DNA of 64,000 nucleotides, from assembly GCF_056746865.1 (NCBI RefSeq), contig NZ_CM163382.1. One strand, given 5' to 3'. How positions within the stretch are numbered: the stretch's first letter is position 1; each line of letters begins with the position of its first letter. The translations under genes and the position numbers were made by a program. The notes beneath the pieces were generated by a model, which did not search any database, was not told the DNA's origin, and saw nothing but the letters and a program-made list of their open reading frames with translations. Shown here one piece after another: positions 47,405-50,589 of the stretch.

Positions 47405-48120
47405 CTATAAAGGATTATCCATCTTAAAATCGTCGATATCGCCTGTCATTTTGAATAGATTGGTGTCATTCCAACGGCACAGTTGTCTAACCCGCATTAG
47501 ATTTGAGTTGGCTCTGCGGATTATTGAGAAAGCATCTTCAACAGCAGTAATCACCGATTTTTCCCAATCTTGTGCTCGGGTAAAGGTGCTTTGTGAATAG
47601 CGATAATTGCCCTCACGGGGGAGGTAATGGCTGATCACCTGGTATTTGTCAGAATTCTTTTTAGGTTTAAACTCGTTGTAAACCCAGAAAATTTCGAGTT
47701 TTTTGTTTCTTTGCCTTACACGACAACCAAAATGACCTGGGTAGCCTTCAGAGTTTTTACCTCTATGTGCAACGTTGTTCAGCCAGAACAAGTCTGCAAT
47801 TTTTTGTGCTATGTAGAAGTAGCGGAGCTGTTCTATTTCGGTTGATTTATGGGTGTAGTGTAGATATTGCTCTGATATGGTTAAGGAAAAAGCATTGCGT
47901 CGTCTTGATTAACATTTGTGCTATTGACAATAAAGGTTTCCCAAATATTAATTTGTGTTTCTAGTCCTTTAAATGATTTTGAGAAGGCTTCTATGTACTC
48001 AGATTGCGGTTGATTTCCCCCATTTAGTGCTGCACCAAATGTAGCTATCTGTTGTTCTAAAAATGAATGATTTTTGGTCATTACATAATCCTCTGTGTGG
48101 TTGATACTGCGTATTTTCAT
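47405..48120 (-). pseudogene. Hypothetical protein, apparently frameshifted
   Basis: Two consecutive minus-strand ORFs (47881-48120 and 47405-47791) with a short gap; no family recognised. Confidence 0.3.
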
Positions 48121-49824
48121 GAAAGGAGATCACTCAATAACCCCCCTGTGTCAGCATAGTTGTCGCCTCAATTTTTTAAGGAGATAACAATGCCAGGACA
48201 ACCAATACCAAATGAGCTCAAAGAAAAAGGACTGATATGGCTTTTGCCACCATACTGTTGGTCACACCGTCAGATAGCCCGGAAGCTGAAGATCAGTGCC
48301 TCAGTTGTATCAAAATGGAGATGTGAGTTAGTGGAGCAAGGACTTTTACCTGAAAATGAAAAGATTACCTCCGTTGATGTTGAAGACTGGACACCGGAGC
48401 GTCGATTCTCAGTTGTTCTTGAGACGGCTACGCTGTCTGTCACGAACGGTGCAATAGTGGATCACTTTTCATCCGTCGTTGACACTGTCAGAAATGGAGC
48501 TTGCCGATTATTGCCGACGCATGGGATTGTTTGTTGAACAGGTTAAAGAATGGCGGGCTATCTCAATTCAGGCGCATGAAAAAAATTGACGGAAAATATT
48601 CGAACAGACAGGGCATTGCGTGACGCAAAAAATAAGTTACGAGAACTGGAGAAAGAGCTTAAGCGCAAAGATAAAGCTCTGGCGGAAGCTGCGGCCCTGC
48701 TTATATTAAGGGAAAAGTTCAATGCCCTCTGGGACAACAGCGAGGAAGACTGCCCCCTCTCCTGGAGCGGCATAAAATTATTTCTCTTGTCCGTGAGGCC
48801 GTCGCCAACGGCGCCCGGAAAGGTCAGGCTTGTAGGTGTATCGGTATTTCTATTCGGACACTTCAGCGCTGGACTAATGGCAACATCATCACCACGGACC
48901 GAAGATCCGATACTGTAAACAGCTCTCCCCGAAATAAGCTGTCAGAAGCGGAAAGATTGCGAATACTGGAGTTGTGCAACTCTCCAGAGTTTGCATCCTT
49001 GCCTCCAAATGTGATCGTACCAACTCTGGCAGACAGAGGTATTTATATTGCTTCTGAATCAAGTTTTTATCGTGTACTGAAATCAGCCAAGCAGTTGAAG
49101 AAACGATCCCGTGAATGCCAGTATAAACTGGCCTGATGTACTCAGGGCCGTTGCACCGAATCAAGTCTGGAGTTGGGACATCAGCTATTTGCCGTCCTGG
49201 GTCAGAGGCCAGCATTTTTACCTCTATATGATCGTCGATATTTACAGTCGCAAAATTATTGCTGCTGAGGTATTTGCCAGCGAATCTGGAAAACATGCAG
49301 CAGAACTACTCCAGCGTGCAGTATGGAATGAAAAATGTTCATCCAACAATCTGGTACTCCATTCTGATAACGGTGGTCCCATGCGCAGTGACACGTTGTT
49401 GGCGAAAATGTATGCGCTTGGTGTGCTAAGTTCTTATTCCCGGCCAAGAGTCAGCAATGATAATCCTTACTCAGAATCTTTGTTCCGGACTCTCAAATAT
49501 TGTCCCTGGTGGCCTGAGAACGGTTTTCGCACTATTGATGATGCCAGAGTATGGGTAAACCAGTTTTGTAAACTGGTACAACTTTGAACATAAGCACAGC
49601 GGGATCAAATACGTCACGCCAGCCGAGCGTCATCAAGGTAATGACATGAAAATACTGGCAGCCTGAAAAGCGGTATACCAGCTAGCTCGCGAGCAACATC
49701 CTGAACGTTGGGGCAAGTATCTACGTAACTGGAACTACATATCAGAAGTCTACCTGAATCCAGAAAAAGAGGCTGCATAACGTAATTTTATTACAAAAGG
49801 CGACAACTACCTTGAAAAACACCG
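48120..49824 (+). mobile_element. IS3-family element, copy C (degenerate; right terminus truncated)
   Basis: Left terminus TGAAAGGAGATCACTCAATAACCCCCC; orfA split by a 47-bp insertion; orfB broken into ORFs such as 49111-49587; last 20 bp or so of the right end missing. Confidence 0.7.
48438..48484 (+). mobile_element. 47-bp IS100 termini-only miniature element with 5-bp target duplication CTGTC
   Basis: TGTCACGAACGGTGCAATA plus GTGGATCACTTTTCATCCGTCGTTGACA equals the two IS100 ends of this window (7919 and 5967) abutted; CTGTC at 48433-48437 and 48485-48489; copies A and B have CTGTC once at this site. Confidence 0.75.
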
Positions 49825-49914
49825 CCAAATCATGATCGATTCGAATGCCAAACTGCGATCGATTCAGATGCCATTTTGCATGCTGCCAGAGCAATATTCC
49901 CCCTGATGGTTGTA

Positions 49915-50589
49915 TCAGAGATGGTATGCCGGTACTTTGCGGGTTGTTCCTGTCAGGTTATCGTGCACCTCCACATTCGTTGTCACTACCGGCATTCCGT
50001 TCTGTCTTAGTCTCAGGACATCAGCCGCAATACGCTGACTGCCAGACCAGAACAGGCCGTCCAGCGCAGTCACCAGCAATCCCGCCTCCAGCGCATACTT
50101 CAGCCGTTCACGGGGCACTTTCACTTCCCGGGCAATCTGCTGATAGGGTGATGATGTATTTTCATTCCCAACCATCCGGCGAATACGGTGAGACAGATGA
50201 TACCGGAATGCATCCGGCACACCGGAAAGACTGGCCTTCAGGCTGTACACGCAGCCAAATCGCTTATCGTTGAACACCACATTTTTCTGGCTGATATCCC
50301 ATTCTTCTCGAAGCGCAGCAATCAGCTGTGGCGTGCGGGTTAAAAGCAGACGAAAAGGCAGTTCAAAACTGGTGACGTAATCCACATTCAGCAGGGCAAT
50401 ACGCAGCCGTTCTTCTGGTCCGGCCTCTGTCTGCCGACACTCCTCCAGAACATCCTGCCACTGCTGGCAAAGGCGTGGAGATTCATTCAGTTCTGTAAAA
50501 CAATATTTATCCGCAAGATAGTCAATTTGTGCAGGCATACTGAAGAGAATTCCGTATAAAGATTCAGCAGACAAAACTTTATCAGTCAA
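49915..50589 (-). CDS. Hypothetical protein (224 aa)
   Basis: Intact ORF with moderate GC; no family recognised; its upstream region is cut by IS629 copy 3. Confidence 0.4.
   Translation of the reverse strand: MTDKVLSAESLYGILFSMPAQIDYLADKYCFTELNESPRLCQQWQDVLEECRQTEAGPEERLRIALLNVDYVTSFELPFRLLLTRTPQLIAALREEWDISQKNVVFNDKRFGCVYSLKASLSGVPDAFRYHLSHRIRRMVGNENTSSPYQQIAREVKVPRERLKYALEAGLLVTALDGLFWSGSQRIAADVLRLRQNGMPVVTTNVEVHDNLTGTTRKVPAYHL

Follow-up and report, generated by a model that had tools for sequence, protein, structure and literature searches.

The frameshifted gene beside rhuM is, on the evidence of its sequence, a mobI pseudogene, and its neighbor across a degenerate IS3-family element belongs to the ECs1377 family. 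Both lie in a 64,000-nt stretch of contig NZ_CM163382.1 (assembly GCF_056746865.1), which we call the window; we refer to the mobI relic as gene 1 and to the ECs1377-family gene as gene 2. Taken as a whole, we consider it very likely that gene 1 is a dead mobI_M relic of a disabled mobilizable island and that gene 2 encodes a DNA-binding regulator of the resident island. The initial annotation had treated both genes as unrecognized, yet RefSeq has names for both, “conjugative transfer protein MobI(A/C)” for gene 1 and “ECs1377 family protein” for gene 2. It had also considered both to be without known function, which still applies to gene 2 but not to gene 1. What had been flagged is largely explained, and is ordinary: a broken mobI and a member of a named, unstudied DNA-binding family.

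A broken mobI next to rhuM

Gene 1 (47405–48081, minus strand) is the 225-codon equivalent of mobI_M from MGIVchHai6-type islands, an assignment based on Pfam, homologs, and nucleotide identity. As had been reported, it adjoins rhuM, is AT-rich (GC 0.376–0.388 across 47500–48249), and is frameshifted, with ORFs 47881–48120 and 47405–47791 occupying different frames. Both ORFs are real, but the gene does not fill the 47405–48120 span first proposed: the true start is the ATG at 48081 (MTKN...) rather than 48120, collinear with the experimentally proven ATG118 start of mobI_M. When the unshifted product was rebuilt by joining the two ORFs, it aligned end to end with intact proteins of 225–249 aa (P0001–P0005), with 86–92% identity over 94–98% of the reconstruction. 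The profile search returned MobI (PF19456) for the 3′ ORF at 97.1 bits against a gathering cutoff of 26.6 (E 9e-28, profile positions 12–116 of 116), and the intact homologs carry the same domain. At the nucleotide level, gene 1 is 91.6–92.5% identical to its counterparts in V. cholerae and metagenome islands.

The lesion is a 1-nt deletion at a T-run/CC site (47881–47890, minus strand), located by alignment and three-frame translation, that shifts the frame after codon 65. In the DNA alignment, the missing base falls at about 47884, where the window reads GCTTTTTCC-TTAACC and V. cholerae reads GCTTTTTTCATTATCA. An uninterrupted frame of about 225 aa is absent; the deletion splits mobI into pieces of 65+1 and 128 (157) codons. 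The residual 128-aa ORF (47405–47791, minus strand) begins with TTG, encodes the C-terminal MobI domain, and matches the +409 TTG construct of ORF 84. The latter is the V. cholerae HC-36A1 gene of MGIVchHai6 that encodes MobI_M, a 225-aa protein starting at ATG118 (Rivard, Colwell & Burrus 2020, PMC7449626). Truncations +304 and +409 of MobI_M did not complement a mobI_M deletion (PMC7449626). Because these equivalent truncations fail, we infer that gene 1 has lost its function, by analogy with constructs of the MGIVchHai6 homolog rather than of this allele.

What remains of the island

Similarity to intact islands stops at 48107, 26 bp upstream of the mobI ATG. Those 26 bp (48082–48107, minus strand) are what is left of a conserved xis–mobI intergenic region of about 530 bp; the rest, including the promoter and oriT, is gone. 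The oriT of MGIVchHai6 spans 49 bp and lies upstream of ORF 84, within which the promoter P84, induced by AcaCD, is located (PMC7449626). Sensitive blastn over the rest of the window, the part past the IS3-like element included, found no intergenic or oriT sequence. Within the same stretch, tblastn detected no homologs of Int, HTH_17, DUF927, or AlpA of V. cholerae L003, a pattern search found no att repeat TTCTGTATYGGNAARTRA, a tRNA scan gave no tRNA, and there was no sign of trmE. The motif T[GT]CCCAAAAAGGGCA, present in two copies in each of four intact islands, is a candidate for the AcaCD box expected before mobI and before xis, judging by its position and the published description; in the window it has no match at two or fewer mismatches and matches only at chance level at three. 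Since oriT, xis, and int are absent, we predict that an IncC helper would not mobilize this locus.

The oriT/xis/int side of the island appears to have been replaced by the degenerate IS3-family element (about 48147–49821, plus strand). The element is marked by broken ORFs with HTH_23 and rve domains, by inverted-repeat cores at 48157–48168 and 49798–49809, and by a RefSeq note reading “frameshifted; internal stop.” No clean target duplication was seen around its ends. Genes 1 and 2 do flank it on a shared strand, as annotated, both sets of ORFs being on the minus strand and the element itself on the plus.

On the other side of gene 1, the cargo arm (34992–47347, plus strand) holds relB/dinJ-like, hsdM, hsdS, hsdR, kwaA-like, kwaB-like, and rhuM genes, recognized by identity to E. 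coli 1585m1 and by PADLOC; the 184- and 280-aa neighbor proteins match KwaA and KwaB (PADLOC-DB v2). IS1 bounds the arm on the left, and copies of IS629/IS1203 interrupt hsdR (41705–43014, with its transposase ORF on the minus strand) and rhuM (45364–46673, minus strand). The resulting order, mobI–rhuM–kwaB/kwaA-like–hsdR–hsdS–hsdM–relB/dinJ, agrees with the published island description, in which rhuM and type I RM are typical neighbors of mobI_M (PMC7449626). Intact islands run int–HTH–DUF927–xis–oriT region–mobI, then rhuM or another cargo gene, then type I RM. This arrangement is found in four independent islands (L003 of V. cholerae; L094; L095-97, counted once; and E. coli 1585m1 at mnmE), with rhuM following mobI in three of them. 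The conserved adjacency of rhuM marks the backbone/cargo junction of a mobilizable island. The cargo arm is 99.0–99.8% identical in nucleotide sequence to the trmE island of 1585m1 over 34992–41706 and 43015–45004, so gene 1 would be the dead mobilization gene of the vehicle that carried this cargo. Sequence comparison also makes the window copy a mosaic, since the 3′ part of rhuM together with mobI is 85.9% identical to the 1585m1 island but 91.6–92.5% identical to Vibrio-type islands.

In MGIVchHai6-type islands, MobI recognizes the island's own oriT, just upstream of mobI, and it is through this recognition that an IncC helper plasmid can transfer the excised island with its relaxase TraI and its type IV secretion system. 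Mobilization of MGIVchHai6 needs TraI, TraD, and TraJ of the IncC helper (PMC7449626). In the window, only the cargo arm and mobI (34992–48107) of an MGIVchHai6-type island survive. This remnant probably left its trmE site for another E. coli island, and it is truncated at one end by IS1 and at the other by the degenerate IS3-family element. With the reading frame, AcaCD-responsive promoter, and oriT of mobI lost, and with xis, int, and att repeats also missing, the fragment would neither make a working MobI nor be open to mobilization.

The ECs1377-family gene

Gene 2 (49915–50538, minus strand) encodes 207 aa, with a predicted N-terminal alpha/beta domain and a C-terminal winged HTH. It is intact, as first described, but it is not 224 aa long: the ORF is open to 50589, and the family-consistent start, shared with RefSeq, gives the shorter product. 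A copy of IS629/IS1203 lies directly upstream (50679–51988, minus strand). The profile search assigned the protein to NCBIfam NF052300 (equivalog; 322.8 bits, cutoff 190, profile 1–190 of 190), and a cluster of 3398 sequences matches it at 93% identity. Against HTH_39 (PF14090), it scores 16.1 bits with a gathering cutoff of 21.3, while homologs P0059 and P0119 score 25.0 and 25.6. In the predicted structure (pLDDT 86), the C-terminus forms a three-helix bundle with a beta-hairpin wing that matches winged-helix folds, and stand-alone HTH proteins of phages can be superposed on its last ~68 residues; judging from this model, the winged HTH most likely binds DNA. The N-terminal ~125 residues have no match by sequence or fold in the PDB, the fold comparison having covered the PDB and viral models, and searches of PDB sequences with gene 2 as a single protein and as a profile returned no match. 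Literature searches on ECs1377, HTH_39/PF14090, and CDI regulators found nothing useful. K-12 YagK (CP4-6) was considered as a member of the family and rejected (BLASTP E 0.04 over 41 residues), and papers found for yagK had no bearing on gene 2.

Of 5426 complete E. coli genomes, 1542 (over a quarter) carry copies about 90% identical to gene 2, which often stand directly upstream of CDI/two-partner-secretion or T6SS clusters. Among 80 loci from other Enterobacterales, most copies adjoin unrelated housekeeping genes, TssB or CdiB/POTRA occurs downstream in eight, and ORF clustering found no partner in more than nine. When the genes first in line downstream in these species were classified by Pfam, 73 genes gave 74 different families. 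Because the neighbors in the 80 loci are mostly unrelated, a dedicated role as a cargo regulator is not general.

Gene 2 looks like part of the resident E. coli island backbone, outside the mobI island, and may regulate neighboring island cargo. In related loci, the ECs1377-family gene is the final gene of the backbone and reads on into cargo that varies, frequently CDI/two-partner secretion or T6SS; the copy in the window would have been stranded by the IS elements on both sides. A broader proposal is that the family consists of widespread island-borne winged-helix regulators that head cdiBA/two-partner-secretion and T6SS cargo and switch it on or off, RovC-like in function though structurally unrelated, with the window copy orphaned by IS-mediated cargo loss. 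In this general form, we consider the proposal unlikely.

Alternative readings and known systems

The change of frame in mobI might be taken for a programmed ribosomal frameshift by which full-length MobI is still made, and the shift does fall within a T-run (CTTTTTCC), where ribosomes can slip. However, all intact homologs code in a single frame, the site has no canonical X XXY YYZ heptamer in the zero frame, and Rfam finds no frameshift element or other RNA family in 47000–51000. A full-length protein would, moreover, still have no oriT target. We rejected this explanation, the probability of which is close to nil. Also very improbable is a domesticated role for the C-terminal 128/157-aa MobI product as an anti-plasmid factor that competes at the relaxosome of incoming IncC/IncA plasmids or related islands. 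The Pfam domain is whole in the 3′ ORF, and MobI_M does compete with its helper: transfer of the helper plasmid was about 40-fold lower when full-length ORF 84 was overexpressed and 12-fold higher when ORF 84 was deleted (PMC7449626). The fragment has also been kept in 76 of 5426 E. coli genomes, but 75 of these copies are at least 99% identical, a sign of recent common origin that does not speak for selection; among 40 rows sampled, 34 match the window at 100% over the 731-bp stretch with the deletion. Further against such a role, the native promoter is gone, the gene is directly adjoined by the degenerate IS, which runs on the other strand, the sole in-frame canonical start is a TTG, and the equivalent +409 construct is inactive for mobilization.

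The initial annotation had suggested that both genes are further anti-phage defense cargo of the island that holds rhuM. They do adjoin rhuM, the type I RM system, and the Kiwa-like pair, and in one E. coli case the ECs1377-family gene immediately precedes a MADS defense cluster. Nevertheless, no PADLOC-DB v2 model matches gene 2 or either piece of mobI at E ≤ 0.01. For gene 1, the Pfam match, conserved synteny, and experiments on its homolog point instead to a MobI-family factor for conjugative mobilization, now dead, and adjacency to rhuM belongs to the backbone/cargo junction of the mobilizable island. Gene 2 encodes a winged-helix protein, lies beyond the break of the mobI island, and belongs to a family whose members stand more frequently before CDI, two-partner-secretion, or T6SS loci, or before no particular locus. 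Homology to housekeeping or IS-derived proteins, which had been named as evidence against a cargo role, was not literally found, but the conjugative-mobilization homology of gene 1 answers the same question. We give defense cargo a very small chance. Possible, though rather doubtful, is that the ECs1377-family protein is a backbone maintenance or replication-type DNA-binding factor (e.g., for island excision, partition, or silencing) and not a regulator of cargo. Some E. coli copies follow a conserved series of Gp2/YagK-YfjJ-type, zinc-ribbon, Hha, and AlpA-like HTH genes, and phages commonly carry related stand-alone HTH_39 proteins. Yet copies without that backbone occur directly upstream of cdiBA, upstream of T6SS clusters at fixed chromosomal sites (in Kosakonia and Citrobacter, ahead of tssB), and as a lone gene beside housekeeping genes. 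UTI89 and GF130 are strains in which the gene immediately precedes cdiBA.

With gene 1 read as a dead mobI_M relic and gene 2 as a regulator of the resident island, the two ORFs at 47405–48120 should be annotated as one mobI pseudogene. The “defense island” (type I RM, the Kiwa-like pair, and RhuM) would be the decayed cargo arm of an IncC-mobilizable trmE-type island, now fixed in another E. coli island. The locus would then be a small, clear example of how anti-phage cargo delivered by a mobilizable island stays after IS elements disable the vehicle, and it also points to mosaic exchange between Vibrio-type and enterobacterial islands. The ECs1377 family is the remaining promising lead, as a predicted DNA binder found repeatedly before CDI and T6SS loci.

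For gene 2, NF052300 and PHROG 24243 give full-length matches to a family without an assigned function. RovC, the T6SS4 activator of Yersinia pseudotuberculosis (PDB 6XZ5; PMC7535981), is a small two-domain protein with a C-terminal HTH that is encoded immediately upstream of a T6SS cluster, as are some ECs1377-family copies. RovC is, however, divergently oriented and has an all-helical C-terminal domain, whereas the ECs1377-family gene is co-oriented with its cluster and its product carries a beta-hairpin wing. We rejected RovC as a homolog, there being no sequence similarity even by profile and no fold support, and the likeness appears to be an analogy of position only.

For gene 1, MobI_C of IncC/IncA plasmids and MobI of SXT/R391 ICEs share PF19456 and the same presumed role, that of an oriT-recognition accessory factor for a MOBH1 relaxase, but are only about 27% identical to the window mobI over the C-terminal half. 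The IncC/IncA mobI is part of a self-transmissible element, whereas the lineage in the window is specific to mobilizable islands. MobI_M of MGIVchHai6 belongs to the same family, and the window copy has the same length of 225 aa when repaired. Their landmark codons are collinear, with ATG118 corresponding to M1, ATG304 to M63, and TTG409 to the start of the 128-aa ORF in the window. Both loci have a convergent rhuM neighbor and type I RM cargo. Unlike its counterpart in MGIVchHai6, the window mobI is frameshifted, has neither the P84 AcaCD promoter nor oriT, and is unlinked to xis, the DUF927 gene, int, or a trmE/yicC/dusA site. A trmE island of E. coli NCTC10962 is listed in Table S1 of the MGIVchHai6 study (PMC7449626). 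The trmE (mnmE) island of E. coli 1585m1 (NZ_CP086391.1) shares the gene order of the window through rhuM and mobI but is complete, with an oriT region bearing two AcaCD-like boxes, xis, DUF927, and int at mnmE, and its mobI encodes 194 aa.

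A mobI pseudogene interrupted by a one-base deletion

Three minus-strand ORFs occupy 47405-50589: 47405-47791 (128 aa, TTG start), 47881-48120 (79 aa) and 49915-50589 (224 aa). The second and the third are separated by an IS3-family element whose plus-strand ORFs are broken. The initial annotation had described a frameshifted, AT-rich gene and an intact gene on the same strand flanking a degenerate IS3-family copy. That observation is confirmed, while the interpretation built on it is only partly supported. GC content is 0.376-0.388 over 47500-48249, the reading frame changes within the AT-rich gene, and both genes lie on the minus strand with the element broken between them. 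The window is from E. coli; 43 complete genomes contain 80% or more of the 3.4-kb stretch, at 99.9% identity in those listed.

The 128-aa ORF matches the Pfam family MobI (PF19456; E 9e-28), lacking only the first 11 profile positions. Its frame differs from that of the 79-aa ORF, which stops at 47881, and is open back to 47908. When the two are joined, intact proteins of 225-249 aa cover 94-98% of the product at 86-92% identity; one of them, from V. cholerae, bears the name MobI(A/C). A DNA alignment with the gene for this protein revealed one base missing in GCTTTTTCC-TTAACC, at about 47884. The two annotated ORFs are one mobI pseudogene (47405-48081), a point added by the present analysis. 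The initial annotation had called both genes functionally unknown, which does not apply here: the MobI family is already characterised, and RefSeq already gives the name. The MobI of IncC plasmids is a much more distant relative, with only about 27% identity in the C-terminal half. The fragment occurs in 76 E. coli genomes (75 of them matching at 99% or more), and a 731-bp stretch containing the gene matched the window at 100% in 34 of 40 sampled rows. RefSeq models of the fragment vary by genome, either 128 aa (TTG) or 157 aa from a non-canonical ATA, as in SMS-3-5 (comparison locus L002, 20106-20579). The 5' piece is a separate 66-aa hypothetical protein, and none of these models carries a pseudogene flag.

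A homologue that has been studied is MobI_M of MGIVchHai6, a trmE-integrated V. cholerae island that is mobilised by IncC plasmids (Rivard, Colwell and Burrus 2020, PMC7449626). MobI_M has 225 aa and starts at ATG118 of ORF 84; deletion of ORF 84 reduced mobilisation about 2,700-fold, and constructs starting at +304 (ATG) or +409 (TTG) failed to complement it (PMC7449626). Reconstruction of the unshifted product, which the initial annotation had proposed, yielded 225 aa from MTKN, collinear with MobI_M. By position counts, M63 of the reconstruction falls at the +304 ATG, and the 128-aa TTG ORF is the counterpart of the +409 construct. Consequently, among products that begin at a canonical start codon, the longest encoded at this locus is equivalent to a construct found inactive in that study.

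The IS3-family element, labelled "frameshifted; internal stop" in RefSeq, contains one fragment matching HTH_23 and another matching rve (Pfam). Its inverted-repeat cores lie at 48157-48168 and 49798-49809, and its ends at about 48147 and 49821. It has no clean target-site duplication (CCC vs CCG), a sign that the IS probably mediated a rearrangement here and did not simply insert. Short stretches on either side (48108-48146 and 49822-49914) are foreign to the mobI island and to the neighbouring ECs1377 locus alike; part of the second (49825-49883) is shared at 98-100% with several plasmids, where no feature is annotated.

An ECs1377-family gene outside the mobI island

The second gene is intact, as had been claimed, but the start shared by its family and by RefSeq gives 207 aa (49915-50538) rather than 224. 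Its product scores 322.8 bits against the NCBIfam model NF052300, "ECs1377 family protein", for which the cutoff is 190, and also matches PHROG 24243, a family of unknown function. For this gene the earlier description of unknown function stands, as the ECs1377 family is named but has no assigned function. Nothing was found in Pfam at E <= 0.01 or in PDB sequence searches. With relaxed thresholds, a C-terminal winged-helix match (HTH_39) scored 16.1 bits for this copy, below the threshold of 21.3 that two homologues exceeded (25.0 and 25.6 bits). An AlphaFold2 model built from 35 homologues had a mean pLDDT of 86, and no match was found among PDB and viral models for its N-terminal alpha/beta domain. 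We infer a DNA-binding, probably regulatory, protein of the resident island. RovC was considered as a relative and set aside, the likeness being one of position only.

Of 5426 complete E. coli genomes, 1542 carry a copy at about 90% identity. Several E. coli islands have the gene behind a series of conserved backbone genes (Gp2/YagK-YfjJ-type, zinc-ribbon, Hha and AlpA-like HTH), and the cargo into which it reads varies: cdiB-cdiA in both UTI89 and GF130, a two-partner-secretion haemagglutinin locus in P15-385, tssB-tssC in FORC_029, a POTRA/AAA/PAPS-reductase/IbrB/PerC block in two strains and a MADS defence locus in one. SMS-3-5 has this backbone too, farther along, with a Kiwa system and several IS elements in between. 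In Kosakonia and Citrobacter, T6SS clusters are directly downstream on the same strand. Across 80 loci from other species, TssB was downstream in 4 and CdiB/POTRA in 4, the first downstream genes represented 74 Pfam families, and no neighbour was conserved in more than 9 loci. The link to competition-system cargo thus appears recurrent, not obligatory. At one Citrobacter site (DUF1062 ... focA-like/mlaA/fadL; loci L027, L011 and L012), the T6SS cluster is complete, fragmentary or absent by strain, and the ECs1377-family gene is kept in all.

In the window this gene is isolated, with the IS3-like element downstream and an IS629/IS1203 copy (50679-51988) starting 140 bp upstream of its start. 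It lies outside the mobI island; the intact relatives of that island carry oriT-xis-DUF927-int at that position. The suggestion that both genes may be further defence-island cargo is not supported: one is a mobilisation gene, and the other is outside the island and had no match in the PADLOC search. The locus is ordinary and largely explained, and the ECs1377 family is its one modest lead.

A stranded arm of an MGIVchHai6-type island

In the MGIVchHai6 family the backbone reads int-xis-86-85-ig-mobI, type I RM systems are present in most of the trmE members, and in most rhuM adjoins mobI (PMC7449626). The same arrangement of cargo is found to the left of the mobI pseudogene. Segments 34992-41706 and 43015-45004 share 99.0-99.8% identity with the cargo arm of the island in E. 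coli 1585m1, which comprises relB/dinJ-like, hsdM, hsdS, hsdR and a KwaA-like/KwaB-like pair. This pair (43568-44964, plus strand; 184 and 280 aa with overlapping stop) directly follows hsdR, apparently in one operon with the type I RM system. Both proteins are hypothetical in RefSeq; their PADLOC matches to KwaA (E 9e-16) and KwaB (E 7e-14) are moderate, and the pair is 99.8% conserved in the 1585m1 island.

The 3' part of rhuM and mobI are only 85.9% identical to the 1585m1 island, compared with 91.6-92.5% to Vibrio-type islands. RhuM (within 45000-47347) is 97% identical to the V. cholerae protein (L003, 10808-11842) over residues 120-344 and 68% over residues 1-121, which places a recombination breakpoint inside rhuM. 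With cargo 99% identical to the E. coli island, mobI closer to Vibrio-type islands and RhuM split, the fragment is a mosaic. Its left boundary is an IS1 and its right boundary the degenerate IS3-family element. Two further IS629/IS1203 copies interrupt hsdR (41705-43014) and rhuM (45364-46673), so that in this strain neither the restriction subunit nor RhuM is likely to be active; all three copies are near-identical (99.8-100%). Both genes are intact in related genomes, e.g., EC332 and SMS-3-5.

Four independent intact islands were compared: V. cholerae L003 (at trmE), L094, L095-L097 (counted as one) and E. coli 1585m1 (at mnmE). All have the canonical order, and the xis-mobI intergenic region (~530 bp) is highly conserved among them. 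In each, T[GT]CCCAAAAAGGGCA occurs twice, once near xis and once 70-85 bp before the start of mobI; given their positions and the published description (PMC7449626), we regard both as putative AcaCD sites. That study had already listed intact islands of the same type from E. coli. The 1585m1 example, from a silver-gull isolate (NZ_CP086391.1; L099/L100), is complete (~20 kb, about 4453000-4473300, between tnaC and mnmE) and keeps both AcaCD-like boxes, with an IS21 between the Kiwa-like pair and rhuM; it looks mobilisable.

In MGIVchHai6, a 49-bp oriT lies immediately upstream of ORF 84, the AcaCD-induced promoter P84 lies within its first 117 bp, and mobilisation requires the helper TraI, TraD, TraJ and type IV secretion system (PMC7449626). 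The window resembles the intact islands from a point within rhuM, across mobI, to 48107, where similarity ends 26 bp upstream of the ATG. Homologues of Int, HTH_17, DUF927 and AlpA were absent from the window, as was the trmE att repeat (sequence from Table S1 of PMC7449626), and AcaCD-like motif matches did not exceed chance. The mobI gene has lost its reading frame, its promoter and its oriT, and is no longer linked to xis and int; the fragment, as our analysis adds, retains none of the membership features needed for mobility. Our analysis also adds that the whole adjacent defence cluster, the "defence island" of the initial annotation, is the stranded cargo arm of a mobilisable island of the MGIVchHai6 type, whose mobilisation gene is the frameshifted gene beside the cluster.
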